A stretch of 18,093 nucleotides of DNA from a virus (Duplodnaviria; Heunggongvirae; Uroviricota; Caudoviricetes). Positions 865 through 18,093 of this stretch are shown piece after piece. The position numbers and the translations under genes were made by a program. Each line of letters opens with the position of its first letter. Within the stretch, counting starts at the first letter, position 1. A model generated the notes under the pieces. That model had not been told where the DNA came from. It worked only from the letters and a program-made list of their open reading frames with translations, and did no database searches. Location: positions 1-18,093 of IMG/VR virus record IMGVR_UViG_2734482772_000007, one strand, 5' to 3'.

Positions 865-894
865 TAAAAAACCTCCGCGTTTGCGAAGGTTTTT
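865..894 (-). terminator. putative bidirectional rho-independent terminator
   Basis: AACCTCCGC / GCGAAGGTT imperfect inverted repeat (869-891) flanked by an A-run (865-870) and a T-run (890-894); sits just after the stop of the 902-1240 gene. Confidence 0.45.
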
Positions 895-901
895 GTTCAT
901 A

Positions 902-1882: not shown

Positions 1883-1886
1883 AATG

Positions 1887-1929
1887 ACCAAAACACTACT
1901 TTTGGCAGACCAAAAAACATGTTTTGGCC
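1887..1929. promoter_or_regulatory. pair of CCAAAA...TTTTGG palindromes in a noncoding gap
   Basis: CCAAAA-cactac-TTTTGG (1888-1905) and the near-perfect palindrome CCAAAAAACATGTTTTGG (1910-1927) in the 145-bp gap between the 2037-2447 and 1604-1882 genes. Confidence 0.3.
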
Positions 1930-2036
1930 TGCATTTGATTACTGTTTAAACAACTCGCGAAATCAGGAACGTCGAGTTTCGGTGATGGCTTTCATCGTGT
2001 TGTTGCTCCGTGATTCAGAAAATTTCATGCCGGGCC

Positions 2037-2447: not shown

Positions 2448-2811
2448 CTGGCACCTCCTTTACATACCGTGATTTTTCCAGCGGTTTTGGGCTGCGCTTC
2501 TGTTTCGCCAGACACCGTAAAAACGAATAGAGGACCACTCCCTAAAACCAAGATATCTATAGCGAACAACAAGCCGATTTGAGATACGGATAAGTTGCCC
2601 CGGCTTTGCTATCAGCAGTCTTGCCTTACGGTTTTTCATCATTTTGCTCTCCTGCGTTTCTTTGCTTCGCGTCGTGCAGCTGCAATACCGGTATGGCGGC
2701 GCTTTTGTGCCGGGATGATGTTGTCAGCCATCAGGACATGTGGCTTTGCAATTAGCGCAGAAGCCCAAAAACGAGTCGAGTACGGTAACAAGCCGATACA
2801 TGCCACACGCA

Positions 2812-3441: not shown

Positions 3442-3802
3442 GGGTTGCCTCCTGTTCATTTCCCTTGTTCAGTTTTCGTCTGCATACAGCGCAATCATCG
3501 GGGCTTTCGAAGCTGTCTGGTTCGCGTTCACCAGAGTACATCCATCTGCGGCAGATACTGGTTACTTCATTCTCGGCAAAATAATGATATTTTTTCGACC
3601 TGGCTGGTCTGCCCCATCCAGCTGTTCTCTCGCTCACATCACGTTTTAATCCCCCCGCGCGGACCTCCTTTAGCTCCAGAAGGGCCAGCCTCAGAAGCGT
3701 CCACCACTCACTGTCTGCAACCGGCTCCATATCAAGCGCTCTGTCAGCATCAGCAATCAGTCTGGTCAGGCTCTTATCGCTTATTCTGGTTTGCTGGCTC
3801 AC
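3428..3802 (-). CDS. hypothetical phage early protein (about 124 aa from GTG at 3802)
   Basis: AGGAGG + 6 nt + GTG start; the upstream ATG at 3820 has no SD of its own (the SD would lie inside it). C-terminal tail NEQEATREQN is encoded by the repeat cassette. Confidence 0.5.
   Translation of the reverse strand: MSQQTRISDKSLTRLIADADRALDMEPVADSEWWTLLRLALLELKEVRAGGLKRDVSERTAGWGRPARSKKYHYFAENEVTSICRRWMYSGEREPDSFESPDDCAVCRRKLNKGNEQEATREQN
3436..3461. repeat. 26-nt repeat copy B (Shine-Dalgarno plus start-codon cassette)
   Basis: GCTCACGGGTTGCCTCCTGTTCATTT; 25/26 identical to copy A at 3797-3822. On the - strand it reads AAATGAACAGGAGGCAACCCGTGAGC. Confidence 0.8.
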
Positions 3803-4088
3803 TGGTTGCCTCCTGTTCATTTTTTTCATTCCGGTACACAAGAATTACGACATCTCCCCGGGTAATTACGCGTGCGGGGTCGCCCTGTTGCATATGGTCA
3901 ATATCAAACGCGTCATTAAACGCATTTAGCGCCTTCGCGCGCTTGTCTTTACAACGACGTTTTTCACGCTGCTTAAAGAGCGAAGAAATCAACCACCTGA
4001 ATGACATAAAAGTGATATAGCCATAACCGATAAGCGCCAGACCTGTATTCATGGCTACATCTATCGTTATCGTTTTATCAATGACCAT
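3774..4088 (-). CDS. small membrane protein of unknown function (104 aa)
   Basis: AGGAGG + 7 nt + ATG at 4088; one hydrophobic helix (NTGLALIGYGYITFMSF) followed by a basic stretch; C-terminal NEQEATSE tail encoded by repeat copy A. Confidence 0.45.
   Translation of the reverse strand: MVIDKTITIDVAMNTGLALIGYGYITFMSFRWLISSLFKQREKRRCKDKRAKALNAFNDAFDIDHMQQGDPARVITRGDVVILVYRNEKNEQEATSEPANQNKR
3797..3822. repeat. 26-nt repeat copy A (Shine-Dalgarno plus start-codon cassette)
   Basis: GCTCACTGGTTGCCTCCTGTTCATTT; 25/26 identical to copy B at 3436-3461. Confidence 0.8.
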
Positions 4089-4308
4089 TGCCAGCCTCCT
4101 GTTTTGCCACTTTAAACGCCCGTAACATCGGGACCGTTTTACCGCTGATGACAGTGTTCATAACAATACCGATTCCACTGTGATGTAACGCTCCCGGTGC
4201 AACAAACAGCGCAGCATCTACAACTCTGAAGTAACGGTGGAACTCCCAGAACCAGCAAGAAATAGTGATAGTTGCGGTGACCCCATGGTCATAAAATTCA
4301 ATTTTCAT
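4078..4308 (-). CDS. hypothetical phage early protein (76 aa)
   Basis: ATGA start/stop overlap with the upstream gene (translational coupling); operon strand. Confidence 0.4.
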   Translation of the reverse strand: MKIEFYDHGVTATITISCWFWEFHRYFRVVDAALFVAPGALHHSGIGIVMNTVISGKTVPMLRAFKVAKQEAGNGH

Positions 4309-4532
4309 TTGCAGTTAAACCTTCTCTTATGACGTTCTACGGCAGCCTTCATATTGTTGTGCACGGTTCTTTTAATAATCCGACGTCCCACACTGTCATA
4401 GAACCGCCACCGGGAAGCCCCCGGATATCCGGGGAACTCAACCACCGCGCTACCGTCATTCATCCTGTATTCGTGGCGTTCTCCGGGCGGCTGGTATATT
4501 GCTTCGGTAACACTGAGAAGTTTAAAAGCCAT
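4305..4532 (-). CDS. hypothetical phage early protein (75 aa)
   Basis: GGAGG SD upstream of the ATG at 4532; begins 2 nt after the stop of the DUF2786-like gene. Confidence 0.45.
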   Translation of the reverse strand: MAFKLLSVTEAIYQPPGERHEYRMNDGSAVVEFPGYPGASRWRFYDSVGRRIIKRTVHNNMKAAVERHKRRFNCK

Positions 4533-4534
4533 CG

Positions 4535-5245
4535 TTACACCCTCCCCAGTGCCAGCGGTCTGTTGCTCTGACCATTAACCCCCTGATGCAGTCTGGCGTT
4601 TTTCCCGGCGATAAAACCGGCTGTAGCGGCAAACGCTGCACCTCGACACGCTTTAGCTGTGCGCATATCCCCGTCGCGTAGCCCCTTAGTGCTGTGCAGG
4701 TTCTTTCTGTAAAGCTCAAGGCGGCTTTTTTCTTCCGGGGAGACGTCATACACCGCAATGACATCACGGGCACCAAAGACCCAGCCTTCGCAGAACTGGT
4801 CGCCACGGGCTACCCGCGTGGACGGACCACAACGTTTGCAGTGTTTATCCTGATATTTCTTGCGCTCTGCCATCATCTGACGGGAAAGCACATCAAACGC
4901 GTAAGCCGCGATTTCCGGGCGGCTGTCAGAGCCATAAAAACGCACGTGACGTTTGAGTGAACCAGAAGCCCGGTATTCGCCGGATATGTAACACTCGACA
5001 CCGAAGGCTTTACAGACCAGGTCACACAGGATGTGCATATAACGCGGCGGTGTACTGGCATCACTCGGCGCACCCGCGCTGGCAGCTTCCTGAATGTCGA
5101 ACAATTCAGCGTCGTTTTCGCTGATGCCATGCTGGCGCATATAAGCCTGGGCTTTTGCAATAGCGTTAGCGGCTTCTTCCGGGCTTGATGTTCCTCTGGC
5201 AAGGCGTAACAGTTTTTTGATTTTGGCAATGTATTTATCTTTCAT
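4535..5245 (-). CDS. DUF2786-like phage protein with Cys-rich C-terminal half (236 aa)
   Basis: N-terminus MKDKYIAKIKKLLRLA...SPEEAANAIAKAQAYMRQHGISE resembles the DUF2786 N-terminal helix as I recall it; C-terminal half has CDLVC ... CKRCG ... FCEGW; GAGG SD upstream. Confidence 0.6.
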   Translation of the reverse strand: MKDKYIAKIKKLLRLARGTSSPEEAANAIAKAQAYMRQHGISENDAELFDIQEAASAGAPSDASTPPRYMHILCDLVCKAFGVECYISGEYRASGSLKRHVRFYGSDSRPEIAAYAFDVLSRQMMAERKKYQDKHCKRCGPSTRVARGDQFCEGWVFGARDVIAVYDVSPEEKSRLELYRKNLHSTKGLRDGDMRTAKACRGAAFAATAGFIAGKNARLHQGVNGQSNRPLALGRV

Positions 5246-5258
5246 GGTCGTCTGAACC

Positions 5259-5441
5259 TCAGCATCCTGAATTCTGAATTACGCAACTTCCGGCACGGCC
5301 TTCAGGAACGTGGGGAGTTCGTTCTGGCTGCGGCGCTGGATGAACATCTGCTGTCGATTGAGAACTGGTCGCAAGACGATTAAAACAAACGATTGTCAGA
5401 TTAATTTCGCGGGCGAATTTTTTTTGCTTAGCGATATTCAT
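5259..5441 (-). CDS. possible small protein (60 aa)
   Basis: GAGGAAG SD 8 nt upstream of the ATG at 5441; its stop overlaps the SD of the next gene. No motif support. Confidence 0.3.
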   Translation of the reverse strand: MNIAKQKKFAREINLTIVCFNRLATSSQSTADVHPAPQPERTPHVPEGRAGSCVIQNSGC

Positions 5442-5461
5442 AAATAAACTTCCTCAGATTC

Positions 5462-5498
5462 AGGCGTAAGCCAGCCCCGGCGGGTTTACGCCTGTTTT
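5462..5498 (+). terminator. GC-rich hairpin plus T-run, terminator-like in the + orientation
   Basis: AGGCGTAA (5462-5469) pairs with TTACGCCT (5486-5493) around a GC-rich loop, followed by TGTTTT (5494-5498). No + strand gene is evident upstream. Confidence 0.3.
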
Positions 5499-5523
5499 AA
5501 ATAACAATTAAAAACAAATTAAA

Positions 5524-5715
5524 TTAATGCGGTGCTTTCAGTGTTTCGACTTTTACGAAATAAGGCTCGACATTAATTTCAACCACACAACCACATTTAA
5601 AATCTCTGGCAGGTGAAACGGTTTTCACCACACGACCACCACGCAACGCCGGATGTGCAGTGTGCATGAAGCGAGTCCCTACCGGATACTGCTTATTAAA
5701 GTTCTTCGCATTCAT
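5524..5715 (-). CDS. hypothetical small phage protein (63 aa)
   Basis: ORF on the operon strand with a GGAAG-type SD; overlaps the 3' end of the ANR-like gene by about 20 nt. Confidence 0.4.
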   Translation of the reverse strand: MNAKNFNKQYPVGTRFMHTAHPALRGGRVVKTVSPARDFKCGCVVEINVEPYFVKVETLKAPH

Positions 5716-5929
5716 GGCGTGGCTTCCATCCTTTCAGGTGAGCATTAGCACAGAACTCGGCCCGGTGTTCCGCCCAGATGCGGCGCAGGGTGCTACACGG
5801 GCTTTGTGCTGCCTTACGCCACAGCTTTTCAGCCTCGGCATAATCGCCGCGTTGTTCTGCTCTGGACGCGCCCAGCGAATACGCCGCGCAACTATTTCCG
5901 GCTCTGTACTCTTTGATATCCTGATGCAT
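5696..5929 (-). CDS. ANR-family-like small regulator (77 aa from the ATG at 5929)
   Basis: RAEQRGDYAEAEKLWRKAA...WAEHRAEFC pattern resembles ANR-family prophage proteins as I recall them; the ATG at 5929 lies 1 nt after the upstream gene's stop. Confidence 0.5.
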   Translation of the reverse strand: MHQDIKEYRAGNSCAAYSLGASRAEQRGDYAEAEKLWRKAAQSPCSTLRRIWAEHRAEFCANAHLKGWKPRHECEEL

Positions 5930-5930
5930 G

Positions 5931-6575
5931 TTAAACCCCTGCAATATCAAGCGGGATTGCGCGGTATTCAGCAGAATCACCGACGCGCTCATACACGCGG
6001 ATATAGCTTTTGCTGCCAATTACCTGGACGGCTTCACCAATCAGTTTCATGGCGTTATCCCAGCGTTCCTCCGTAATATCGAGACGACGCAGAGCCAGAA
6101 CGCGCCCGGTGTTAATGTTACCTTCCTTGTCCGTGCTGAATGCTTCACTGATGATGGCTTTAATTTCAGGGCGCGCTCCTTCCGTCCAGTCAGCCAGACA
6201 GTCATCAATCAGTGCCTTCGCGGTCTGAATGCGTTCATCAAGCGCGATACGGTCCTGCATGGCGCGCTGAATCTTGTAACGCCCGTCAAAGCTGTAAAGT
6301 GTGATATTCCCTTTTTTACCGCCTTTCACAGCGCCGTATTTCTCCGCCGACAGGTCAATAAATGCCTGAATATCACCAAACGCACGCAGTTTCAGTTCAC
6401 GCAGTGAGGCAGAGGCAGCAATCACCATCTCCACAAGCTCACCGACCAGCTGCTCACGGTCGCGGTCAATATCTTTGATAAGACTTTCAGGCGTCATCAC
6501 ACCACGGGCATCAACCCAGTAGCCTTCCTGCACTTTATTTTTTGTATATTGCTTAACTTTATTTTCAGTCGTCAT
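5931..6575 (-). CDS. Mu-like early protein, DUF3164-like (214 aa)
   Basis: Size, position in the early operon and overall composition fit the DUF3164 family of Mu-like prophages; recalled from memory, not searched. Confidence 0.5.
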   Translation of the reverse strand: MTTENKVKQYTKNKVQEGYWVDARGVMTPESLIKDIDRDREQLVGELVEMVIAASASLRELKLRAFGDIQAFIDLSAEKYGAVKGGKKGNITLYSFDGRYKIQRAMQDRIALDERIQTAKALIDDCLADWTEGARPEIKAIISEAFSTDKEGNINTGRVLALRRLDITEERWDNAMKLIGEAVQVIGSKSYIRVYERVGDSAEYRAIPLDIAGV

Positions 6576-6604
6576 AATTAAATTACCTCAGTGATATTTA
6601 CAGA

Positions 6605-6820
6605 TTAATGTGTGTTATGTGCGCGAGGCGCAACATTTTCAGAAAAAAGATTCACGCCGTTATAGTCATTTCTGAGCGTTTCCTTGATAGCATCATGTAA
6701 TCTTGTTGCCACCTGAAACTCCTTTTCGGAAGCTCCGTCCTTCGAATAACTCCCCGTGGTCTGGGTTAAAACACAGCCTTTTTCATCGGTATAGATAATT
6801 ACTTCTAACTTGACCGCCAT
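6605..6820 (-). CDS. hypothetical small early protein (71 aa)
   Basis: GAGGAA SD 7-8 nt upstream of the ATG at 6820. Confidence 0.5.
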   Translation of the reverse strand: MAVKLEVIIYTDEKGCVLTQTTGSYSKDGASEKEFQVATRLHDAIKETLRNDYNGVNLFSENVAPRAHNTH

Positions 6821-6832
6821 TCTGATTTCCTC

Positions 6833-7072
6833 TCATTGCCATACGACGGTGCAGCCGTCGATACAGGACGTTTTAACCACGCGGCGCAGGCCGCTGAATG
6901 TCTGGATGATTTCCGTTACCGGCCATACAGGACCACCCACGGGCGGGCAGGCATAAACCACAGGTAAACGGTGATGTTGTCCCGTTACACGACCACCAGT
7001 GGTGTGGATGGCCACACGGGCACGGGAACGGACGGCGTTAATGGTCTGCTTGTCCATCGTCTTGTTCTCCAT
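6833..7072 (-). CDS. hypothetical small early protein (79 aa) in the position Mu uses for kil
   Basis: Start overlaps the B-like gene's stop by 1 nt (TAATG-type coupling); no sequence motif recognised. Confidence 0.45.
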   Translation of the reverse strand: MENKTMDKQTINAVRSRARVAIHTTGGRVTGQHHRLPVVYACPPVGGPVWPVTEIIQTFSGLRRVVKTSCIDGCTVVWQ

Positions 7073-7965
7073 CAGTGAATTAACATTTCTGCGAATTTAT
7101 CAATGGCCTGCACACTGACCGGCGCATCGCTGATATCACAAATCCGGTACACACCACGCGCCAGCTTGAACAGACGGCGGGCATTACCCAGCGAACGTGT
7201 ATAAAGCGCCTCGCTGATTTCCGGCTCTGCTGCTTCCGGCATCAACCCGGTAGCTATCTGGTTAAAATCTTCCTGCGACAACGTATCGCCCAGGTTAAGC
7301 GCCAGCGCCACGCGGCTGTATAACTGGGCGAACTCACCACGACGCCCCTTGAGGTTAATCAGAAGGCGAGGCATACCCGCCAGAACAACCCCGATACCCG
7401 CTTTGTCATGCAGACGGCGCAGAACCTCCAGTGCGCGATAGGGGAGCAGTTCAGCCTCGTCCACCATCAGCAGACGACCGGAATCACGCAGTTCGCGCAC
7501 ACAGGCATCTATCAGTTCGTGAATGTTGCCGCGAACCTTTACCCCCAGCTGGCGGCACAACTCCTCAAGCAGTGTTCTGGCTGTATAGCCCGGGTCAGCC
7601 TCAATCAGGACCGCATCCCGGTTTCTGGCGGCGTATTCACGCAGAATCATTGTTTTGCCAAGACCTGCTGCGCCATACAGCACACAGATTTCACATTCCA
7701 GGTGAGCGTAGGCCAGCACCTCCAGTCCTTTGGCAGTCATACTGGTGGTCACAAACTTTGCTTTAATACGGCGGCTGTTTTCCTTTTCCCGCTCACGGGT
7801 CACAAAGGCAGAAATGCGTTCTTCAATATCAGCCATATCGCCCTGATATTTACCCTGTAAATACTGGCTGATAACGGCGCTGCTACGCCCAATGGCACGG
7901 GCGACGTGGGTCTGCGTATAGCCGCGACGGGCCATTACGTCATTTAATTGCGTAATTAAACTCAT
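7072..7965 (-). CDS. MuB-like transposition ATPase / target DNA activator (297 aa)
   Basis: N-terminal HTH region (YTQTHVARAIGRSSAVISQYLQGKY), Walker A GAAGLGKT, Walker B-like LLMVDEAE; immediately downstream of the transposase, as in Mu. Confidence 0.85.
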   Translation of the reverse strand: MSLITQLNDVMARRGYTQTHVARAIGRSSAVISQYLQGKYQGDMADIEERISAFVTREREKENSRRIKAKFVTTSMTAKGLEVLAYAHLECEICVLYGAAGLGKTMILREYAARNRDAVLIEADPGYTARTLLEELCRQLGVKVRGNIHELIDACVRELRDSGRLLMVDEAELLPYRALEVLRRLHDKAGIGVVLAGMPRLLINLKGRRGEFAQLYSRVALALNLGDTLSQEDFNQIATGLMPEAAEPEISEALYTRSLGNARRLFKLARGVYRICDISDAPVSVQAIDKFAEMLIH

Positions 7966-7983
7966 AATTAAATACCTTTTAAA

Positions 7984-10026
7984 TTAACGGTTGTTTGTGC
8001 CGTTTTTCTTTAAATTGCGCTCGCGCTCAGATGCGAATAAATAAAGTTCTTCTTTTTCCTTTTTCTCCGGGCGTTCCAGTCCATATCCCAGATTAAAGTC
8101 AGGCTTCTGCGTAATAGCCGGGGTAAGCTCGCGTTTCGCCTCTTCGATTTTCTGCGTGGCCCGTGCAATGCGGCCCCTGACGCGTTTCTCCAGTTTTTGT
8201 TCGATAACTGGTTTAGCGAAGGCATCAACCTTGTTACCGTTCCAGATGGCATCGCAGATATAAGAGCCATCAGCCCGCCGGACAATGACGCTGTTTGCAT
8301 CATGAATATCGTAACTGACCCTGACTTCATTCCCGTGCTCTGCGGCCAGCTCATATGAGTAATAAATATTGTTGAATAACTGAATTTCCCCGCGAAATGT
8401 TTTGCGCGTCACTTCCGGTCTGAACATTTCATGCAGCTCTTCCGGCGACAGGAAATCAATTTCAACATTCTGCTCTTTTATCAGTTTCCGGCGATACGCT
8501 GCCGGGCTGTAATATTCGCCATCCTCTTTGCGGGGAAGGCTGCTGTGTGGCCGGTTGTTATAGCGTCTGACTTCCAGTTCTATAGCTGCCATCAGTTGCT
8601 CAAAGGTGGGGACTTCATCCCTCGCCTTAACCTGCCGTTTTGTCAGTTCTTTCCCTTTGTGGGTGGCCTTAATGGCTGACTGCATAATCCGTTGCTGCAT
8701 CATTACGGTTTCCTTGTCTGCTCCCTTTGAGCAGTACGTCTGGAAACTCAGGGCCACATCCCGGGGAATTTCCTTGTTAAGCCTTTCAATCACCCCGCGC
8801 CCCTGTGGGTTACCTGGTATCCCCGTGTGATGTTCCACACCCAGCCGGGGCAGAATCCCGGTAATATCGGCATCAAGCACCCGGTTTTTTTCACCGCCCC
8901 CGTTATCGGAGTAATAAATCAGCGGTATCCCGTGCTGCGCCATGCCGTAACGTAACGCATCAGCAACGGCTATCACGTTCTCCGACAGGGACAGTGACCA
9001 GCCCACAACAAAGCGCTGCCCCGCATCCATAACCAGCGTCACTTCTGGCCGGAAAATATTGCCGGTCAGTGGGTTAAACGCGGTCATTTTCATACAGTGA
9101 CCATCCCCGACCCATACCGCATTAACCGGTAATGTGCTCCAGTCGCGCCGCACAAAGGGATTGAGCGAACGCCAGGCTGAACCGGTGGAGCGGAAACGCT
9201 CTTTAACAATCACCGGGACGCTGCTTAACACCCGTCTTACTGCGTGAACTGAAGGCAGTGCCGCCAGCATTCCCGCATCATTCGCGTGTTTTTCATGCCA
9301 CCAGGCTGAAAACTCACGATACGCATATTCAACAGTCGGGCGCTTCCATGAGCGATAGAACATAAAGAAATCGCTCAACCACCAGACCTGCTCCCACGGT
9401 GTTCCCTTATGATGACCGGGAGCCAGTAACGCCAGTAACTGATTGGCATCACCGCGCGCCATCACCCAGCTGGAGTACCAGCTATCCAGGCTGCCGGTGC
9501 TGACACCGGTTCGCTTTCCCTGACGTGCATTTGCAGTATTCGCTGCTTCGATAATGCGGTCAGGTAACGCCCCCATGCGCACACCATCAACGATGTGCTT
9601 TAAAGCGGCCTTCCTGGTCATTCCGGCATACTCGCGCAGCTTATGCACTTCAGTAGCCAGCAATATCCGCGCATCAGCGATGGCCTTTTGCTTGTCAGTC
9701 AGTGCCTGAACTTCACGTAATGCCAGTTCCGGGCATTTGACCATCACCTCCAGTTCATCGCGAACGGCGACGTTTTTAACTGCCTTCGCCTCAACTACGA
9801 CGGGCAGTTGCGCATCTTCCAGGACCTGATGGGTCAGGCGCTTACGTAAAACTTTCTGCGCTTCAGCGGGCAGGCAGTCGATGTGATACTCGAATGCTTT
9901 GGTGCCTTCACGCTTGCGCTTCCATTCCGGGTGCGTCTCTGTGATCCGATTGAGCGTCCAGCGCACCCCCTGAACTGTACCGGGCAAACCAGGAAGACCG
10001 GCCAGCTCATTGGCTGAATAAAACAT
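7984..10026 (-). CDS. MuA-like DDE transposase (680 aa)
   Basis: N-terminus (LAGLPGLPGT ... GTKAFEYHIDCLPAEAQ) resembles the MuA end/enhancer-binding domain; central region looks like an rve/DDE core (VWVGDGHCMK ... YYSDNGGGE); size and position after ner fit. Confidence 0.9.
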   Translation of the reverse strand: MFYSANELAGLPGLPGTVQGVRWTLNRITETHPEWKRKREGTKAFEYHIDCLPAEAQKVLRKRLTHQVLEDAQLPVVVEAKAVKNVAVRDELEVMVKCPELALREVQALTDKQKAIADARILLATEVHKLREYAGMTRKAALKHIVDGVRMGALPDRIIEAANTANARQGKRTGVSTGSLDSWYSSWVMARGDANQLLALLAPGHHKGTPWEQVWWLSDFFMFYRSWKRPTVEYAYREFSAWWHEKHANDAGMLAALPSVHAVRRVLSSVPVIVKERFRSTGSAWRSLNPFVRRDWSTLPVNAVWVGDGHCMKMTAFNPLTGNIFRPEVTLVMDAGQRFVVGWSLSLSENVIAVADALRYGMAQHGIPLIYYSDNGGGEKNRVLDADITGILPRLGVEHHTGIPGNPQGRGVIERLNKEIPRDVALSFQTYCSKGADKETVMMQQRIMQSAIKATHKGKELTKRQVKARDEVPTFEQLMAAIELEVRRYNNRPHSSLPRKEDGEYYSPAAYRRKLIKEQNVEIDFLSPEELHEMFRPEVTRKTFRGEIQLFNNIYYSYELAAEHGNEVRVSYDIHDANSVIVRRADGSYICDAIWNGNKVDAFAKPVIEQKLEKRVRGRIARATQKIEEAKRELTPAITQKPDFNLGYGLERPEKKEKEELYLFASERERNLKKNGTNNR

Positions 10027-10262
10027 TACGCCGCCTTACTGGCATACCGGCTTGGCCAGATCTCCGCAGGTTCCACACCAATAGCATCGGCTATGATGCG
10101 TTCATATTTAGGGCATGAGCGATACAGTGCATTTTTTAAAGAGTCTTTTTTTAGACCAGCGCGTTCAGAAAGTTCACGCAATGTAAAACCTTTGGTGTGC
10201 ACAGCGGCAACGATGTACTCGCGGTGCCAGTCTTTGTTCATTACTTCATTTCTAACCATCAT
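10026..10262 (-). CDS. ner: Ner-like DNA-binding protein (78 aa from ATG at 10262)
   Basis: MNKDWHREYIVAAVHTKGFTLRELSERAGL...NALYRSCPKYERIIADAIGVEPAEIWPSRY closely resembles the Mu Ner / E. coli Nlp family; 1-nt stop/start overlap with the transposase. The longer ORF to 10412 is rejected. Confidence 0.85.
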   Translation of the reverse strand: MMVRNEVMNKDWHREYIVAAVHTKGFTLRELSERAGLKKDSLKNALYRSCPKYERIIADAIGVEPAEIWPSRYASKAA

Positions 10263-10278
10263 TAGGTTACCCTTAAAA

Positions 10279-10321
10279 GTTATCCGTGCGGATAACACCG
10301 CCGTGTTATCCCTTCGGATAC
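10279..10321. promoter_or_regulatory. operator-like palindromes in the repressor-ner divergent control region
   Basis: GTTATCCG-TG-CGGATAAC (10279-10296, perfect 8-bp arms) and imperfect GTTATCC-CTTC-GGATAC (10305-10321); a further ATCCG at about 10330. Confidence 0.5.
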
Positions 10322-10444
10322 AAGTATTGATCCGTATGTAGCCCATGTAAAGCAAAAATAGCTCTTTCTTTGTATTTTCTTTTTGATTTTGGTCTTTATA
10401 TGGTTTTTGCAATTAAAATCAATCAGTTATAGAGGAAAGAAAAA

Positions 10445-11092
10445 ATGACTAGAAATGATGATGCTTTTTCTTTTGTCGACCAGGGAAAAGAAAGTTTCAG
10501 AGAGCGTTTAGTAAAGCTGATAGGTAACCGTAGTGTCAGAACTGCTGCGAGTGATTGGGGAATCCCCCCTTCAACCTTAAACAACTACATTCATAAAGGA
10601 ACAGAGCCTTCTTTTAAAATAGCTTGTCTTATCTCAGATAAAGAACAAGTGAGCTTAAATTGGCTCGCTTATGGTGAGGAACCCACCGCCAAAGAAGGTT
10701 CTCTATCAAATCAAACAGCGCAGCCTTCTCCCGATATTACAAACGAGCTAGTTAACGAGTTATTGAAAAGAGCGTCCACAGAAGATAAGGAACAACTGAT
10801 AAGTGCAATATGCGATATGGGCATTAAAGGAATCTTGGAACGCCTACAGCAACCCACCAGGCAAACTAAGCAAGCCGATAGCGAACTTGAGGAGCAAAGG
10901 AAGGCCATTCAAAGCCTGAACATCAGGCAATCGCTTAAAGACGCTGTTTGCATGGCATTAGCTGGCGATGAGGAAAATGACAAAGAGATTTTGCGCCGCG
11001 CCAAAGCCATTTTCTGTGCTGGAACACCAGGTGATCGCGTTCCCGTCACACCGGAGCAAGAAACTAAGCCTGTAAACAAGAAATCAGCATAA
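10445..11092 (+). CDS. prophage repressor, CI-type HTH (215 aa), in the position of Mu c
   Basis: Divergent from ner; HTH region VRTAASDWGIPPSTLNNYIHKGTEPS followed by VSLNWLAYGE, typical of phage CI-like repressors; GAGGAAAG SD; no S24 peptidase motifs seen. Confidence 0.7.
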   Translation: MTRNDDAFSFVDQGKESFRERLVKLIGNRSVRTAASDWGIPPSTLNNYIHKGTEPSFKIACLISDKEQVSLNWLAYGEEPTAKEGSLSNQTAQPSPDITNELVNELLKRASTEDKEQLISAICDMGIKGILERLQQPTRQTKQADSELEEQRKAIQSLNIRQSLKDAVCMALAGDEENDKEILRRAKAIFCAGTPGDRVPVTPEQETKPVNKKSA

Positions 11093-11251
11093 GCGCCTCG
11101 TTTTGGCGGGGCGTGTGCTGTTAGCTAATCAGCAATAACCACAACAAAACCGAACACAACAGATGAGAACAAATTGAGGAAAACGGGTAAGGATAAAACA
11201 CTTTTTTAAAAGCATTTAAAACCCGTTAAGTTTGTAGCAGAACCAGATCAA

Positions 11252-11406
11252 AAGCGCCCAGAAAAAAGCGCAAAAAAAAGCGTTTTTGGTCATTTCTCAC
11301 AAATCCGCCCAGAATCACACTAAATCACCATACCCCGCGCCACACAAGGCTTGCAGGTTCTACCAGGCTGCACGAACTCCGCCCAGAATTGATCACTACC
11401 CCACAC
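11252..11406. repeat. terminal direct repeats, candidate transposase-binding sites of the prophage end
   Basis: GCGCCCAGAA (11254-11263), TCCGCCCAGAATCAC (11304-11318) and TCCGCCCAGAATTGATCAC (11378-11396); the sequence ends ...CACACA at 11406, consistent with a 5'-TG terminus read on the - strand. Confidence 0.45.
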
Positions 11407-14400
11407 ATGGGCGGAAAACCGGCAGCGCGGCAGGGTGACATGACCCGCAAGGGACTGGATATTGTGCAGGGTTCAGCAGGGGTGCTGATAGGTGCGCCAA
11501 CCGGTGTGGCCTGCTCGGTGTGTCCCACAAAAAAGGACAGTCCGAACTATGGCAGCCCGGTGAACCCGCTACTCGGTGCGAAGGTTCTGCCTGTTGAAAC
11601 CGACCTGGCACTGCCCGGCCCGCTGCCGTTTATTCTTTTCCGCGCCTACAGCAGCTACCGGACCAGGACGCCCGCGCCAGTGGGCGTGTTTGGTCCCGGC
11701 TGGAAAGCGCCCTTCGATATCCGCTTACAGATACGCGATGAAGGCCTGATACTCAACGACAGCGGTGGCAGGAGCATTCACTTTGAGCCGTTGTTTCCCG
11801 GCGAGATAAGCTACAGCCGCAGCGAGTCGTTCTGGCTGGCAAGGGGCGGAGTGCTGAAACAACACAAAGGCCATCCGCTTGCGCGGCTCTGGCGGGCGTT
11901 GCCGGAAGCGGTCCGTCTGAGTCCACACACCTATATGATGGCTGTCAGCACAACCGGGCAGTGGCTGATACTCGGCTGGCCGGAGCGGGTGCCGGGGGCG
12001 GACGAGGTGCTGCCGCCTCCGCCGCCCGCATACCGGGTGCTGACGGGGGTGGTGGACGGCTTCGGGCGGACGCTGGCCTTTCATCGGGCAGCTAAGGGTG
12101 ACGTGGCGGGCGCGGTGACGGGGGTGACGGACGGCGCGGGCCGCCGTTTTCACCTGGCGCTGACCACGCAGGCGCAGCGGGCGGAAGCCTTCCGTAAACA
12201 GCGCGCCACGTCTTTATCTTCCCCGGCCAGTCCCCGTTCTGTTTCCTCTTCTCAGGTTTTCCCCGACACGCTGCCCGCCGGTACAGAGTACGGTGTCGAT
12301 AACGGTATCCGGCTGGAGGCGGTGTGGCTGACACACGACCCGGCATACCCGGATGAACAGCCGACTGCGCCGCTGGCGCGCTACACGTACACGGCCGGTG
12401 GTGAACTGCGGGCGGTGTATGACCGCAGCGGAACGCAGGTGCGCGGGTTTACTTATGATGCGGAGCACGCCGGGCGGATGGTGGCGCACCATTATGCAGG
12501 GAGACCGGAGAGCCGCTACCGGTATGATGATACCGGGCGGGTGACGGAGCAGGTCAACCCGGAGGGGCTGGACTATCGCTTTGAGTACGGGCAGGACCGT
12601 GTGACCATCACGGACAGCCTGAACCGGCGGGAGGTGCTGTACACGGAGGGCGAAGGCGGCCTGAAGCGTGTGGTGAAGAAGGAGCATGCGGACGGCAGCA
12701 TCACCCGCAGCGAGTATGATGAGGCGGGGAGGCTGAAGGCGCAGACGGATGCGGCGGGGCGGCGGACGGAGTACCGGCTGCATATGGCGTCGGGCGCGGT
12801 GACAGCGGTGACGGGGCCGGACGGCAGGACGGTGCGGTATGGCTATAACAGCCAGCGGCAGGTGACGTCAGTGACGTACCCGGACGGGCTTCGCAGCAGC
12901 CGGGAGTATGATGAGAAGGGAAGGCTGGCGGCGGAGACCTCACGCAGCGGTGAGACGACGAGTTACAGCTATGATGACCCGGCGAGTGAGCTGCCGACAG
13001 GGATACAGGACGCGACGGGCAGTACAAAACAGATGGCATGGAGCCGTTACGGTCAACTGCTGGCCTTTACGGACTGCTCGGGGTACACGACGCGGTATGA
13101 GTACGACCGGTACGGTCAACAAATCGCCGTTCACCGGGAAGAAGGCATCAGCACTTACAGCAGTTATAACCCGCGTGGGCAAATGGTCAGTCAGAAGGAT
13201 GCGCAGGGGCGTGAAACCCGTTATGAGTACAGCGCCGCAGGAGACCTGACAGCAACGGTATCACCGGACGGTAAACGCAGCACCACCGAATATGATAAAC
13301 GTGGGCGTCCGGTGAGTGTGACGGAAGGTGGACTGACGCGCAGCATGGGGTATGACGCCGCCGGGCGCATCACCGTGCTGACTAACGAGAACGGCAGCCA
13401 GTCCACGTTCCGGTATGACCCGGTGGACAGGCTGACGGAGCAGCGCGGCTTTGACGGCCGGACGCAACGTTACCAGTATGACCTGACCGGAAAACTCACG
13501 CAGAGTGAAGACGAGGGGCTTATCACCCTCTGGCACTACGATGCGTCGGACCGCATCACGCACCGGACGGTGAACGGCGACCCGGCAGAGCAGTGGCAGT
13601 ATGATGAGCACGGGTGGTTAACCACCCTCAGCCATACCAGTGAAGGCCACCGCGTGTCGGTCCACTACGGGTACGACGATAAGGGCCGCCTGACGGGCGA
13701 ACGGCAGACGGTGGAGAACCCGGAGACGGGGGAACTGCTCTGGCAGCATGAGACGAAACACGCCTACAACGAACAGGGGCTGGCAAACCGCTTTCAGGCA
13801 GACAGCCTGCCGCCGGTGGAGTGGCTGACCTACGGCAGCGGTTACCTGGCGGGCATGAAGCTGGGCGGGACGCCGCTGGTCGAGTATACGCGGGACAGGC
13901 TGCACCGTGAGACGGTGCGCAGCTTCGGCAGCAGGGCAGGCAGTAATGCCGCATATGAACTGACCAGCACATACACCCCCGCAGGCCAGTTACAGAGCCA
14001 GCACCTGAACAGCCTGGTGTATGACCGTGACTACGGGTGGAATGACAACGGCGACCTGGTGCGCATCAGCGGTCCGCGACAGACGCGGGAATACGGCTAC
14101 AGTGCCACGGGCAGGCTGGAGAGCGTGCGCACCCTCGCACCGGACCTGGACATCCGCATCCCGTATGCCACCGACCCGGCGGGAAACCGCCTGCCGGACC
14201 CGGAGCTACACCCGGACAGCACGCTCACGGCGTGGCCGGATAACCGCATCGCAGAGGATGCGCACTATGTTTACCACTATGATGAATACGGCAGACTGAC
14301 GGAGAAGACGGACCGCATCCCGGCGGGTGTGATACGGACGGACGACGAGCGGACCCACCACTACCACTACGACAGCCAGCACCGCCTGGTGTTCCACACG

Positions 14401-15654
14401 CGGATACAGCATGGCGAGCCACTGGTCGAGAGCCGCTACCTCTACGACCCGCTGGGACGGCGAATGGCGAAACGGGTATGGCGGCGGGAGCGTGACCTGA
14501 CGGGGTGGATGTCGCTGTCGCGTAAACCGGAGGAGACATGGTACGGCTGGGACGGCGACAGGCTGACGACGGTACAGACCGACACCACGCGTATCCAGAC
14601 GGTATACCAGCCGGGGAGCTTCGCGCCGCTCATCCGCATCGAAACAGACAACGGTGAACGGGAGAAAGCGCAGTGCCGCAGCCTGGCGGAGAAGTTACAG
14701 CAGGAAGGGAGCGAAGACGGTCACGGTGTGGTGTTCCCGGCTGAACTGGTGGGGCTGCTGGACAGGCTGGAGGGGGAAATCCGGGCAAACTGCGTGAGCA
14801 GTGAAAGCCGCCAGTGGCTTGCGCAGTGCGGGCTGACGGTGGAGCGGCTGGCGGCACAGATAGAGCCGGTTTATTTGCCTGAGCGAAAAATACATCTTTA
14901 TCACTGTGACCACCGGGGCCTGCCGCTGGCGCTTATCAGTGAAGACGGCAATACGGCGTGGAGCGCGGAATATGATGAATGGGGCAACCAGCTTAATGAG
15001 GAGAACCCGCATCACCTGCACCAGCCGTACCGGCTGCCGGGGCAGCAGTATGATAAGGAGTCGGGGCTGTACTATAACCGTCACCGGTACTACGATCCGT
15101 TGCAGGGGCGGTATATCACCCCGGACCCGATTGGGTTGAGAGGTGGATGGAATATGTATCAGTATCCGTTGAATCCCATACAAGTGATAGACCCAATGGG
15201 GTTAGATGCGATTGAGAATATGACATCAGGTGGACTAATTTATGCCGTATCTGGTGTACCTGGATTGATTGCTGCAAACAGCATTACTAACAGTGCTTAC
15301 CAGTTCGGTTATGATATGGATGCTATTGTTGGCGGAGCTCATAATGGGGCCGCCGATGCAATGAGACATTGTTACTTGATGTGTCGAATGACTAAGACAT
15401 TTGGATCAACAATAGCTGACGTGATAGGTAAAAATCATGAGGCGGCAGGGGATAGACAAGGTCAGCCAGCTAAAGAAAGAATCATGGATCTTAAAAATAA
15501 CACTGTCGGTATTGCTTGTGGCGATTTTTCTGCCAAATGTAGCGATGCATGTATTGAAAAATATAACACTGGGCAACTCTTCGGGTTAGATGGTATAAAA
15601 GCAGATAATCCAATAAAAGCAAAGCAAGGGAGTTCAGATGCTTCAAATTATTAG
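11407..15654 (+). CDS. Rhs-family polymorphic toxin with N-terminal PAAR-like region (1415 aa from ATG at 11407)
   Basis: N-terminus [13 protein letters not shown]...[12 protein letters not shown]; many YD/RHS repeats ([22 protein letters not shown], etc.); DPIGL (15124-15138) and DPMGL (15190-15204) preceding a variable C-terminus. The track's TTG at 11389 is rejected in favour of the ATG. Confidence 0.9.
15205..15651 (+). other. Rhs variable C-terminal toxin domain (about 149 aa), family unassigned
   Basis: Begins right after DPMGL; AT-rich compared with the Rhs core; contains [23 protein letters not shown] (15361-15399), KNHEAAGD and [12 protein letters not shown]; five Cys in total. Confidence 0.6.
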
Positions 15655-16120
15655 AGGCAAACTTGTCATTTTTTTAATTACCCTTTGTTTATTTGTTGTT
15701 TACCTTGGGTTTGATAACAATTCAAATTCTGACATCGTATTTTATGGACATAAAACACCAAAGAGCGTTGAGATATATCTTTCTGAAAAAAATATTATTT
15801 ATAAAATAATTAATGACCAAAAAATTAGTAGAGGGAATGGTCATTTTATAAGTATAATGGTTAATAATTACAGGACGCACTGTGGAGTGGTTGATATAAA
15901 TCTTAATTTTTTCAATGATATTCTTTATAGCGTGCGATTAAAAAACATTAGTAAACTGGAGAATATGGAGTTCTGCGCTAAAAAACAACGGGTGTATTTT
16001 AGTGATAAAAACAAGAAGGCTAGTTATAAAATAATTAATTATGGAGACTATTACGATGTTGATTATTATGATAACAATTTGAAAAATGAAGTTTTTGACT
16101 GGATTGGTAAATGGTCATAA
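15638..16120 (+). CDS. putative Rhs immunity protein (160 aa), N-terminal membrane anchor
   Basis: ATG at 15638 overlaps the rhs 3' end by 17 nt, with AAGGGAG SD; N-terminus [20 protein letters not shown] is hydrophobic; very AT-rich, N/K/Y/D-rich. Confidence 0.7.
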
Positions 16121-16300
16121 TGAACAACACCAGAAAGAGAAAAATATAAAATACATACAGAAAGACATGAGAGCAAGGGACGGGGCAGGGCAAGATCATG
16201 AAAATTGTGATGTAAATCACGATTTTCATCTTGGCTTTAACGCCTACAGGTGATCAAAATTTAACCTTTGGAATAACTAAAAAGATAAAAAAGGACCCAG

Positions 16301-17423
16301 GTGAGTATTCAAAGTTTGCTTGATTATATTTCAGTGATCCCTGATATACGACAACAAGGAAAGGTTAAACATAAATTATCTGCTATTTTGTTTCTCACCG
16401 TATGTGCAGTAATTGCAGGTGCCGATGAGTGGCAGGAAATTGAAGATTTTGGACATGAAAGACTTGAATGGCTAAAGAAATATGGTGATTTTGATAATGG
16501 CATTCCGGTCGATGACACCATTGCACGCGTTGTGAGTAACATTGACAGTTTGGCCTTTGAAAAGATGTTTATTGAATGGATGCAGGAGTGCCATGAAATC
16601 ACTGATGGTGAAATTATAGCAATAGATGGAAAGACCATAAGAGGCTCCTTTGATAAGGGAAAAAGAAAAGGAGCAATCCATATGGTGAGTGCATTCTCGA
16701 ACGAAAATGGTGTTGTACTGGGGCAGGTGAAAACGGAAGCCAAAAGTAATGAGATTACAGCCATTCCAGAGTTGCTTAACCTACTGTATTTAAAGAAAAA
16801 TTTGATAACCATTGATGCTATGGGCTGTCAGAAAGATATCGCTTCGAAGATCAAAGATAAAAAAGCAGATTATCTTCTGGCAGTAAAAGGCAATCAGGGG
16901 AAATTACATCATGCATTCGAGGAAAAATTTCCTGTAAATGTGTTTTCTAATTATAAAGGCGATTCGTTTAGTACGCAGGAGATAAGTCATGGAAGAAAAG
17001 AAACACGTTTGCATATTGTCAGTAACGTAACGCCTGAACTTTTGTGATTTTGAATTCGAATGGAAGGGATTAAAAAAGCTTTGTGTAGCATTGTCATTCA
17101 GGCAGAAGAAAGAAGATAAATCAGCAGAAGGTGTAAGCATCCGATATTATATTTCATCAAAGGATATGGATGCTAAAGAATTTGCACATGCTATCAGAGC
17201 GCACTGGCTGATCGAGCACAGTCTTCATTGGGTGTTAGATGTAAAAATGAATGAAGATGCCAGCCGGATAAGAAGAGGAAACGCAGCCTAAATAATATCT
17301 GGAATAAAGAAGATGGCACTGAATTTATTAAGGGATTGCAAAGACATTAAGGGTGAAGAGGAAAAGAAAGAAGGCTGCGTTAAACACAGGGAAAGATCAT
17401 CAGAAGTTCACTTTTTGTACTAA
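16301..17423 (+). pseudogene. ISAs1-family (H-repeat) transposase, diverged copy, disrupted
   Basis: 16301-17047 encodes an N-terminal part colinear with the second copy ([41 protein letters not shown]). A frameshift at about 17045 moves into the frame encoding [18 protein letters not shown]...RYYISS...[14 protein letters not shown]...RRGNAA, an in-frame TAA sits at 17289-17291, and the tail continues to a stop at 17421-17423. Confidence 0.7.
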
Positions 17424-17529
17424 ATAATTCGCATTTTATGTTTAAAAATTGAGATATTCCTCATTACCTGAAGCTGTTTTTTATTGATTATACATGATCA
17501 AATACTCCTTACATAAATAAGGTGAACAA

Positions 17530-18093
17530 ATGGAACTTAAAAAATTGATGGAACATATTTCTATTATTCCCGATTACAGATAAGCCTGGAAAGTAGAGCA
17601 TAAATTGTCAGGCATCCTACTATTGACTATTTTTGCCGTTATTTCTGGTGCAGAAAGTTGGGAAGATATAGAGGATTTCGGGGAAACACATCTCGATTTC
17701 TTGAAGCAATATGGTGATTTTGAAAATGGTATTCCTGTTCACGATACTATTGCCAGAGTTGTATCCTGTATCAGTCCTGCAAAATTTCATGAGTGCTTTA
17801 TTAACTGGATGCGTGACTGCCATTCTTCAGATGATAAAGACGTCATCGCAATTGATGGAAAAACGCTCCGGCACTCTTATGACAAGAGTCGCCGCAGGGG
17901 AGCGATTCATGTCATTAGTGCGTTCTCAACAATGCACAGTCTGGTCATCGGACAGATCAGGACGGATGAGAAATCTAATGAGATTACAGCTATCCCAGAA
18001 CTTCTTAACATGCTGGATATTAAAGGAAAAATCATCACAACTGATGCGATGGGTTGCCAGAAAGATATTGCAGAGAAGATACAAAAACAGGGA
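17530..18093 (+). pseudogene. ISAs1-family (H-repeat) transposase, second copy, premature stop, 3' end outside window
   Basis: MELKKLMEHISIIPDYR then TAA at 17581-17583 where homologues have a sense codon, then AWKVEHKLS...[32 protein letters not shown]...[26 protein letters not shown]... in the same frame to the window end; AAGGTG SD upstream. Confidence 0.75.

Follow-up and report, generated by a model that had tools for sequence, protein, structure and literature searches.

A Mu-like prophage of Escherichia coli inserted across the start codon of rhs, a type VI toxin gene, with a 4-bp target-site duplication

How does an apparently complete rhs gene come to begin a single base beyond the end of a prophage, and what remains of the signals that should express it? 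The question is raised by an 18,093-bp stretch of DNA from a viral sequence record (the window), in which a transposable prophage gives way directly to a gene for an Rhs effector. A preliminary description of the window had proposed that a Mu-type prophage end, carrying three transposase-binding sites, had cut rhs away from its 5' untranslated region and its upstream partners with almost single-base precision. The analysis described here leads to an account that we hold with high confidence: a Mu-like element inserted across the CATG at the start of rhs in an hcp-vgrG-rhs operon, bringing with it what would be terminal transposase sites and leaving rhs cut off.

Positions 1–11405 of the window make up the early half of a transposable, Mu-like E. 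coli prophage. The arrangement of its genes resembles that of Mu, with a c-like repressor gene (10445..11092, plus strand; Pfam Phage_CI_repr, 2.6e-06) that reads towards the prophage end and rhs, divergently from a set of minus-strand genes corresponding to ner-A-B. This set comprises a Ner-like early regulator (10026..10412; HTH_35, 3.4e-25), a MuA-like DDE transposase of 680 aa (7984..10026; Mu-transpos_C, 5.3e-17; HTH_Tnp_Mu_1, 1.8e-10; rve) and, directly downstream of the transposase gene as in Mu, a MuB-like AAA+ transposition ATPase of 297 aa (7072..7965; AAA_22, 8.9e-23; TniB, 4.4e-07). The listed reading frame of the regulator corresponds to 128 aa, and its relatives in homologous copies are called at 78 aa, equivalent to 10026–10262. 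An identical transposase protein is present at no fewer than 10 different chromosomal sites, and its closest relative from an isolated phage is 48.5% identical; at the DNA level, no similarity to isolated phages was detected in the phage collection searched. Complete copies of the prophage family are about 35.3 kb long (35,288 bp in one complete copy) and further encode Mor, GemA, a Mu gpT head protein, a DUF935 portal and a Mu-type tail. Parts of the accessory early region show only patchy identity, of 88–97%, to the copy in TUM1881.

The exact base at which the prophage stops is given by other insertions of the same family. The non-coding stretch beyond the repressor gene (11093..11405), equivalent to Mu attL and referred to here as the c-end, accompanies the prophage at 32 different insertion sites, where its final letters are always ...CACTACCCCACA; the sites have ...TTGATCACTACCCCACA in common and diverge beyond it. 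Megablast matches to E. coli genomes, with insertions in eutC, yfcC, hyfB, scpC and other genes, all end at query position 1006, which is window position 11405. The 32 sites thus fix the Mu-like end at 11405 and not elsewhere, 1 bp from the rhs ATG and one base short of the 11406 originally given. Similarly, a CACACA run that had been read as closing at 11406 occupies 11402–11407, and its last A doubles as the A of the start codon. Complete copies start with TGTAACTTCGCG and end with CACTACCCCACA, so that they have TG...CA termini, and the prophage part of the window closes with CA at 11404–11405. From the stop of the repressor-like reading frame at 11092 to the terminus is 313 bp, in good agreement with the distance of about 300 bp that had been taken as typical of a Mu-type end. 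An Rfam search of the region matched no family.

The rhs gene on the other side of the terminus belongs to a type VI secretion cluster with the native order tssB...hcp-vgrG-rhs-immunity-ISAs1, adjoining yafV/ivy/fadE. In two prophage-free strains, NCTC9082 and GCA_021104695.1, vgrG is followed by 75 bp containing an AAGGA Shine-Dalgarno sequence and then by the same rhs gene. In NCTC9082, C 11406 is precisely the first base homologous to the window, and GCA_021104695.1 is identical to window positions 11406–18093 at 6688 of 6688 bases. Neither a native rhs leader upstream of 11406 nor the earlier caveat that prophage-free relatives might share 11250–11405 survives this comparison: the prophage-free strains are wholly different there, and their rhs loci are without the c-end sequence 11093–11405. 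C 11406 is thus the sole native base of the 5' untranslated region remaining ahead of rhs, and the proposed severing of the gene from its leader and from vgrG at near single-base precision is borne out. The exact Rhs protein was found in 318 blocks of public assemblies, and every one of the 24 contigs that were read has the native arrangement of vgrG, 75 bp and rhs. The linkage to vgrG, which ends 75 bp upstream in the native tssB-hcp-vgrG cluster, is broken by the prophage in the window.

The empty site reads GATTCATGGGCGG and has one CATG only. The right junction, in the window, reads CCCCACA/CATGGGCGG (the slash marks the prophage boundary). The search for the other prophage end that had been recommended was successful: the left junction, vgrG...GGAATTGATTCATG/TGTAACTTCGCG, was found in the IMG/VR contig IMGVR_UViG_2734482772_000016. 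In shorter form it is vgrG...GATTCATG/TGTAACTTCGCG, that is, GATTCATG/TGTAAC, and the stretch ...AAGGAATTGATTCATG/TGTAACTTCGCGTTTTTTTCTGGGC adjoins a vgrG of 713 aa. The two junctions come from two different public records rather than from one assembled genome, and the left-junction contig appears to end about 180 bp short of the window start when compared with a related contig. The right junction is also present in an independent Logan assembly of SRR2239648, with 100% identity over 9523 bp. It was found neither in IMG/VR nor in any complete RefSeq E. coli genome, and neither junction occurs in GTDB representative genomes or JGI metagenomes. The insertion is rare, with a single SRA run and possibly an IMG genome as its observed carriers, and its spread is not evident.

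When both junctions are set against the empty site, the duplicated target is seen to be CATG, with its right-hand copy at 11406..11409, and not the five bases at 11407–11411 that had been anticipated. This duplication includes the rhs start codon (ATG, 11407–11409), and the rhs reading frame is therefore intact. The length of four is not peculiar to this insertion. Perfect 4-bp duplications flank all eight family copies for which both ends are available, the present CATG and seven others (GATA, AGTG, CTTC, ATTT, CGTA, TCTC and TGTC), and a five-base parse fails in all eight. The control, a genuine Mu-type insert in LC727881.1, has TG...CA ends and is parsed with a duplication of 5 bp (GATGA).

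The three direct repeats reported just ahead of the rhs ATG were confirmed. The 18,093-bp window has exactly three copies of CGCCCAGAA, all within the last 151 bp of the prophage. Read inward from the terminus, on the minus strand, they appear as TTCTGGGCG and occupy nt 18–26 (copy 1, putative L1; 11380..11388), nt 92–100 (copy 2, putative L2; 11306..11314) and nt 143–151 (copy 3, putative L3; 11255..11263). With up to one mismatch allowed, CGCCCAGAA has 11 matches in the window compared with 4.8 +/- 2.2 in shuffled sequences, none of the 200 shuffles reaching 11, and a repeat search lengthens the copies to 15 nt (AAAnnCGCCCAGAAn). The string CCAGAA is unchanged in all six divergent family members that were aligned. 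At the opposite (S) end, the same core is found inverted, beginning at nt 18 from that terminus; in a complete copy, the c-end has cores at inward positions 18, 92 and 143, and the S-end has them at 18 and 40 and, in inverted orientation, at 68. Of the seven occurrences of the 8-mer TTCTGGGC in the 35,288-bp copy, six are no more than 151 bp away from a terminus, where about 0.7 would be expected per strand.

Because the core recurs inverted and equidistant from the terminus at the other end, and because the layout parallels that of Mu, the repeats are read as putative transposase sites. On this sequence evidence they are very probably the end-binding sites of the MuA-like transposase, laid out as L1, spacer, L2 and L3, which upholds the earlier assignment. 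The repeats might instead bind the repressor, IHF or HU, or be structural A/T-tract elements of the prophage end, given that the ends of Mu are bound by its repressor as well and that its L end contains an HU site (PMC3820752). The surroundings of copy 3 in the window are also rich in A/T tracts, with small hairpins. Against this, the core is placed, in inverted orientation, exactly 18 nt from each terminus, has a 22-bp R1-R2 step with an inverted third copy matching Mu, and is essentially limited to the two ends of a 35-kb genome. In addition, the operators of the Mu repressor are located in the interval from c to ner and not at the terminus. We therefore regard a purely non-transposase role as unlikely, and the reading as putative transposase sites is retained; the repeats could still serve a second protein besides the transposase.

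Taken together, the junctions and the empty site suggest how the locus was formed. The element would have entered the hcp-vgrG-rhs operon, in the type VI secretion cluster close to yafV, by transposition, and its transpososome would have cut with a 4-bp stagger across CATG, corresponding to rhs positions -1 to +3. Gap repair would then have duplicated CATG, placing an ATG at both junctions. The right-hand copy preserves the rhs reading frame, and the left-hand copy remains with vgrG, the native Shine-Dalgarno sequence and the promoter, opening a 35-codon junk reading frame into the phage S-end. In this way, rhs and the immunity gene would have been parted from promoter, Shine-Dalgarno sequence and vgrG by about 35 kb of prophage.

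The gene left on the right-hand side (11407..15654, plus strand) is intact and encodes a PAAR-like/DUF6531/RHS-repeat type VI effector of 1415 aa with a DUF6973 C-terminal domain. Its Pfam matches include RHS_repeat (3.2e-71, 10 stretches), the RHS core (2.9e-16) and DUF6973 (8e-11, residues 1306–1372), and DUF6531 is clear. The N-terminus had been described as intact with a PAAR motif, and this holds only in part: the literal string PAAR is present at residues 5–8, whereas the PAAR_motif profile of Pfam is matched along part of its length and does not reach the threshold (E = 0.029; 15 bits vs a cut-off of 27). A version of the reading frame extended to a TTG (11389–15654), with either L or M as first residue, matched no database record. 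Overlapping the rhs stop, and likewise downstream of the insertion, is a candidate cognate immunity gene of 160 aa (15638..16120, plus strand). The annotation of NCTC9082 assigns it to the YdcD family, and it is 100% identical to that of the prophage-free strain; a Pfam search gave it no match.

The region ahead of rhs is another matter. Pairing of positions -22 to -4 with the anti-Shine-Dalgarno sequence was calculated at +0.2 kcal/mol in the window vs -5.7 kcal/mol in the native leader, in keeping with the reported lack of a Shine-Dalgarno sequence, and the cost of opening positions -18 to +12 is 13.5 kcal/mol vs 7.5 kcal/mol. A chance 8-nt inverted repeat, TCCGCCCA/TGGGCGGA (11378..11415, plus strand), sets the L1 core against rhs codons 1–3, and the predicted minimum free energy structure of the RNA has its two halves paired in a hairpin that covers the start codon. 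A dedicated structured RNA at the prophage end and rhs start is unsupported, with a fold z-score of only -1.3. The native promoter and vgrG had both been noted as missing upstream; indeed, no promoter-like site was found on the plus strand between 11093 and 11406, and vgrG lies beyond the other junction. These features suggest that rhs is probably silenced, and most likely neither it nor the immunity gene reaches a useful level of translation. Weak Shine-Dalgarno-independent translation of rhs may nevertheless take place, and read-through transcription from the repressor promoter is possible because there is no convincing terminator between the repressor stop and rhs (three weak terminator-like hairpins vs 2.4 expected).

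Such read-through could in principle have made the junction a functional one, with rhs transcribed from the repressor side, translated from the duplicated ATG and its toxin thereby coupled to lysogeny. The orientation of the repressor gene (10445–11092) towards rhs, the presence between them of nothing more than hairpins at chance frequency and the perfectly intact state of both rhs and the immunity gene are all compatible with this idea. The intactness, however, is accounted for by how recent the insertion is: with 0 differences from the prophage-free strain over 6688 bp, neither decay nor selection has had time to act. Moreover, the transcript would have no Shine-Dalgarno sequence, its start codon is predicted to lie within an 8-bp G+C-rich stem, Rhs is parted from the vgrG normally encoded alongside it, and the insertion is as rare as described above. 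Functional rewiring of this sort thus appears very unlikely, and we favor an rhs gene that was simply cut off from its expression signals. For the strain concerned, the insertion probably disarms one type VI Rhs toxin, the expression of the immunity gene may be affected as well, and contact-dependent competition with prophage-free kin carrying the identical toxin could shift. The locus is also a clean example of a target-site duplication that preserves a reading frame while every expression signal is removed, and annotation pipelines would label a gene cut off in this manner as intact.

Why the element came to lie next to an ATG can be judged from the other insertions. The 32 distinct flanks are in unrelated genes, which excludes site-specific integration, and they reveal only a weak C-R-T-N target preference, with T at duplication position 3 in 20 of 32 sites (p = 8e-6) and C at position 1 in 15 of 32 (p = 0.006). 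One insertion at a start codon is expected, since about 0.2–0.6% of random registers would overlap a start codon and hundreds of family insertions are on record (762 blocks). The location is therefore essentially a chance result of near-random insertion, slightly aided by the weak preference. Specific targeting of rhs start regions, for example through a likeness of the native GATTCATGGGCGGA to the putative transposase site GATTCTGGGCGGA, is very unlikely. The native target is the reverse complement of repeat copy 2 save for one inserted A, CATG conforms to C-R-T-N, and a related prophage resides within another PAAR/rhs gene in STEC346. Yet the latter prophage lies in reverse orientation inside the body of a different rhs gene, no other flank among the 32 resembles the end motif, and a single start-codon case needs no special explanation in a family of this size. 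Furthermore, transposase-bound end sequences of Mu repel rather than attract nearby insertion, a property known as target immunity. It is also very unlikely that the junction is an assembly artefact in which a Mu-like prophage was mis-joined to an rhs repeat, even though both are multicopy in E. coli (median of 2 rhs-like places per genome) and the junction is missing from the complete RefSeq, GTDB representative and JGI collections, because the SRR2239648 assembly has it in identical form inside a 9.5-kb stretch matching the window at 100%, the reciprocal junction exists with exactly the 4-bp duplication foretold from other copies, and the conserved terminus of the phage and the onset of host homology both match the breakpoint with single-base accuracy.

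The 4-bp duplication is the only unusual feature of this otherwise ordinary chance insertion of a known kind. Among transposable phages, duplications of 5 bp for Mu and 6 bp for B3 have been reported (PMC8705779). Our literature search returned no described 4-bp duplication in Mu-like phages and nothing on the prophage of E. coli O127:H6 E2348/69. The paper on the E. coli W genome goes no further than citing the Mu genome paper. As a tentative suggestion, somewhat more doubtful than not, the common E. coli lineage of the E2348/69 eutC prophage and its relatives may represent an undescribed variant of Mu-type transposition geometry, with a 4-bp stagger transpososome and a C-R-T-N preference. 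Less likely is the corollary that start codons following a C are mildly favored targets in which the duplication regenerates the ATG. Wider interest is limited to the consistent 4-bp duplication of the family, which bears on strand-transfer spacing in Mu-type transpososomes.

Among known elements, Mu offers the closest parallel in layout. Both have a repressor gene divergent from ner-A-B that reads towards the end (stop to terminus, 313 bp here and 338 bp in Mu), TG...CA termini, a c-end with one terminal and two internal sites, another end with two sites 22 bp apart (R1-R2) plus an inverted third, and near-random insertion; the sites of Mu are at L 5–27 and 150–172 and at R 27–49 and, inverted, 56–78. 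They differ in that identity of the transposase to Mu-type MuA is only about 45%, the core TTCTGGGCG bears no resemblance to the ...AAGYRCGAAA consensus of Mu, putative L1 and L2 are spaced at 74 nt and L2 and L3 at 51 nt rather than at about 105 and about 40, and the duplication is 4 bp rather than the 5 bp of Mu. With this duplication, a transposase of about 45% identity and no DNA match to any phage record searched, the prophage is not a close relative of Mu/D108 (Muvirus sensu stricto). The prophage in eutC of E2348/69 and its many relatives in E. coli genomes, on the other hand, belong to the same family: the E2348/69 copy shows 98.3% identity in the c-end and has the same termini and again a 4-bp duplication (AGTG), although the insertion site is another one and the accessory early region differs in parts. 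The record of Klebsiella phage ST405-OXA48phi1.1 is trimmed at gene boundaries, without ends, and falls outside the end comparison.

In the broader sense of 'saltoviruses', the prophage has a MuA-type transposase, an adjacent MuB-like ATPase, TG...CA termini, a short duplication and many unrelated insertion sites without attachment site or integrase; its multiple end sites would be the core's six copies, which are restricted to the two ends, equally far from each terminus, in a Mu-like layout. B3/D3112-type phages of Pseudomonas and other members share a DDE transposase with an ATPase, TG...CA ends, random insertion with a short duplication and a genome of about 36–39 kb, but B3 is reported to have a 6-bp duplication, and its transposase is of the Tn552-like lineage (PMC8705779). 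D3112-like transposases are about 30% identical to the one in the window. The host gene is likewise of a familiar type, sharing DUF6531, RHS repeats, an RHS core and a C-terminal toxin domain, and possibly a PAAR-like N-terminus, with the vgrG-linked PAAR-Rhs effector/immunity modules of E. coli, except that in the window vgrG and the remaining cluster have been displaced by about 35 kb of prophage. Finally, the 'mutator' phenotype of Mu arises from polar insertions by the complete prophage, in which a reading frame is usually interrupted. As in those classical mutations, a complete prophage within an operon has parted the downstream genes from their promoter, and here from the ribosome-binding site as well, but the coding sequence is untouched and the four duplicated bases regenerate its start codon.

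A megablast search with window 10400–11900 covered 5,426 complete E. coli genomes. The prophage part was found in many strains and in different host genes (eutC, yfcC, hyfB, scpC and others), with all matches ending at query position 1006–1008, corresponding to window 11405–11407, and no match among these genomes spanned the junction. Flanks gathered by looking up the exact repressor and transposase proteins, from complete genomes and from IMG/VR gave 32 distinct sequences, each following the identical terminus ...TTGATCACTACCCCACA. Because this terminus is constant and the first flanking base varies among copies (A, C, G or T), we place the prophage end at the CA of 11404–11405. The sequence leading up to the rhs ATG was as given in the preliminary description except for one-base offsets: the CACACA run covers 11402–11407, its final A being the first base of the start codon (11407–11409), and the prophage ends at 11405 rather than 11406.

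The interrupted gene (ORF 11407–15654) encodes a 1415-aa Rhs protein with DUF6531, ten RHS-repeat stretches, an RHS core and a C-terminal DUF6973 domain. The N-terminal PAAR claimed for it is present as the literal string PAAR, but the Pfam PAAR match is partial and below threshold (E = 0.029). The top match to the 5′ part of rhs (99.9%) was the prophage-free locus of E. coli NCTC9082, where the gene sits in a type VI secretion cluster (tssF-tssE-tssC-tssB, hcp, vgrG, rhs) and is followed by a ydcD-family gene, ISAs1 remnants, and then yafV, ivy and fadE. In this strain 75 bp lie between the vgrG stop and rhs, the spacer ending in ...AAAGCAGAAGGAATTGATTCATGGGCGG. Upstream of rhs the two sequences differ until window 11406, the C of CATGGGCGG, where identity starts; one native base is therefore left upstream of the ATG. 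Public assemblies list the exact Rhs protein in 318 blocks, and the native arrangement was found in 24 of the 24 contigs read that carry it. Among these, the prophage-free locus of GCA_021104695.1 is identical to window 11406–18093 at 6688 of 6688 positions, which argues that the insertion is very recent. Downstream of the rhs-immunity pair, the window contains remnants of ISAs1-family (H-repeat) transposases (16301–17047, on to 18093); since they are identical in prophage-free strains, they are older than the prophage insertion.

The opposite terminus was defined as TGTAACTTCGCGTTTTTTTCTGGGC from three family copies with both ends, in scpC of TUM1881 (duplication GATA), in eutC of E2348/69 (AGTG) and, internally deleted, in a gntP-like gene of GCA_949281755.1 (CTTC), the interrupted reading frame of the last being consistent with 4 bp. 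These duplications predicted a left junction of ...GATTCATG followed by TGTAAC. A gapped-pattern search permitting any duplication length found no match in GTDB representatives or JGI metagenomes and one in IMG/VR, contig IMGVR_UViG_2734482772_000016, in which the missing prophage end does lie beside vgrG: the sequence runs from vgrG (713 aa) to ...AAAGCAGAAGGAATTGATTCATG and directly into TGTAACTTCGCGTTTTTTTCTGGGC. The duplication is accordingly CATG, window 11406–11409, and includes the start codon. The 5-bp duplication proposed at 11407–11411 must be abandoned: four further complete copies have ATTT, CGTA, TCTC and TGTC, the duplication is 4 bp in 8/8 family copies with both ends, and a 5-bp parse fits none. 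The two junctions are known from separate records; judged against a related contig, the one from IMG/VR seems to stop ∼180 bp before the window start. An assembly artefact at the right junction is excluded, as an independent Logan assembly of SRR2239648, the same as window 3984–13506, contains it identically.

Over the duplicated bases, the 32 repressor-proximal flanks (from the window and the loci read, L001–L052) show a weak preference for C at position 1 (15/32, p = 0.006), a purine at position 2 (22/32, p = 0.025) and T at position 3 (20/32, p = 8e-6), with which CATG is consistent; flank position 8 likewise has an excess of G (15/32). A single inserted base separates the native target GATTCATGGGCGGA from the site GATTCTGGGCGGA, a likeness seen in none of the other flanks among the 32 and probably coincidental. 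Among random registers, about 0.2–0.6% would include part of a start codon; with 762 blocks listed for the exact repressor protein, hundreds of family insertions are on record, so one start-codon case is expected by chance. A related prophage in E. coli STEC346 (NZ_CP091044.1; locus L001, 7021–10579), 86.6% identical at its repressor-proximal end, adjoins, near cusS, a truncated PAAR/rhs gene that comes after vgrG and a DcrB-like gene. This makes a second, independent case of a Mu-like element striking a type VI secretion rhs effector, here inside the ORF.

The insertion has altered the expression signals of rhs much as supposed. The prophage now separates rhs from its native Shine-Dalgarno AAGGA (anti-SD pairing, −5.7 kcal/mol), and the stretch that has taken its place, AGAATTGATCACTACCCCA, pairs at +0.2 kcal/mol. 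We found no promoter-like site on the + strand in the interval from the repressor stop codon to rhs, nor a convincing terminator there, making read-through from the repressor gene possible. The core of the most terminal repeat, TCCGCCCA (11378–11385), has 8 nt of perfect complementarity to rhs codons 1–3, TGGGCGGA (11408–11415), which is probably a coincidence; 11304–11311 is also listed with this complementarity. In the predicted fold the start codon would lie within the resulting stem, raising the cost of opening −18 to +12 to 13.5 kcal/mol from 7.5 in the native context; the fold overall is not unusual (z = −1.3). Efficient translation of rhs after insertion is thus unlikely, and the gene has presumably been silenced, possibly with a polar effect on the ydcD-family immunity candidate downstream (15638–16120). 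The duplicated ATG at the left junction, together with the native Shine-Dalgarno, starts an ORF of 35 codons, MCNFAFFSGLIGEQFWAESAQPKSPELDAKLLVSC*, that runs into the prophage (7220–7329, − strand, of left-junction locus L027).

The repeats reported just before the rhs ATG are real: CGCCCAGAA occurs in the window exactly three times, at 11255–11263, 11306–11314 and 11380–11388, copies that extend to 15 nt in a repeat search. Allowing one mismatch raises the count to 11, versus 4.8 ± 2.2 in shuffles (0/200 reach 11). Counting both strands of the complete 35,288-bp TUM1881 copy, there are seven occurrences of the 8-mer TTCTGGGC, against ∼0.7 expected per strand, and 6/7 are within 151 bp of a terminus. 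Counted inward, the cores lie at 18–26, 92–100 and 143–151 from the repressor-proximal terminus and at 18–25, 40–48 and 68–75 (inverted) from the opposite one; in aligned sequences of six family members, the most distant at 79% identity, CCAGA(A) does not vary at any of the three core positions. The same approach applied to Mu recovered L1 (5–27), L3 (150–172), R2 (27–49) and inverted R3 (56–78), L2 and R1 being too divergent for the seed used; these reportedly lie at about 110–132 and 5–27 (Craigie, Mizuuchi and Mizuuchi 1984). Both elements have one terminal and two distant sites at the repressor end; at the other end, a pair of sites with 22-bp spacing is joined by a third in inverted orientation. 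Given this shared architecture, the three repeats are very probably the transposase-binding sites of a Mu-type end, as suggested earlier. The ends of Mu bind repressor as well (PMC3820752).

Judged by its predicted products, the left part of the window represents the early region of a Mu-like transposable prophage: a MuB-like AAA+ ATPase (7072–7965, −), a 680-aa transposase with Mu-transpos_C, HTH_Tnp_Mu_1 and rve core domains (7984–10026, −), a Ner-like HTH_35 protein (10026–10412, −) and a CI-type repressor oriented toward rhs (10445–11092, +). The complete TUM1881 and E2348/69 copies additionally encode GemA, Mor, lysis genes, terminase, a DUF935 portal, a Mu gpT head protein and a Mu-type contractile tail. 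Identity of the early accessory region between the window and TUM1881 is patchy (88–97%), indicating mosaicism. Between terL and the DUF1804 gene, some members carry a gene for a DNA methyltransferase (locus L036, 1–700; E2348/69 locus, 14380–15120) that the TUM1881 copy lacks. The deleted GCA_949281755.1 copy (4122–6961 of its locus) fuses a tail-fibre fragment to a truncated transposase and keeps both termini and its duplication. In GCA_964054095.1 and GCA_964051665.1, the repressor-proximal end adjoins another phage's tail/baseplate module, so the insertion is into a second prophage, and an IS21-type element (rve + IstB) lies within the early region.

The finding is a correctly recognized prophage-host junction and biologically ordinary; its one point of possible interest to transposition specialists is the 4-bp duplication. 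We found no description of such a duplication in the literature searched, where a review-type statement gives 5 bp for Mu and 6 bp for B3 (PMC8705779). As a control for duplication parsing we used GenBank LC727881.1, a different Mu-type insert in an Stx2c phage, for which the depositors annotate a 4-bp GATG (35673–35676, 75645–75648); this would give the element a TA start, and a canonical 5-bp GATGA with TG...CA ends accounts for the sequence just as well. Among isolated phages of the collection searched, none had DNA similarity to the prophage part, and the closest phage transposases are ≤48.5% identical to that of the window. Assignment to Mu sensu stricto was rejected given the 4-bp duplication and a transposase about 45% identical to Mu-type transposases; the element nevertheless works like Mu and, with putative transposase sites at both ends, has the defining features of the broad transposable-phage group.
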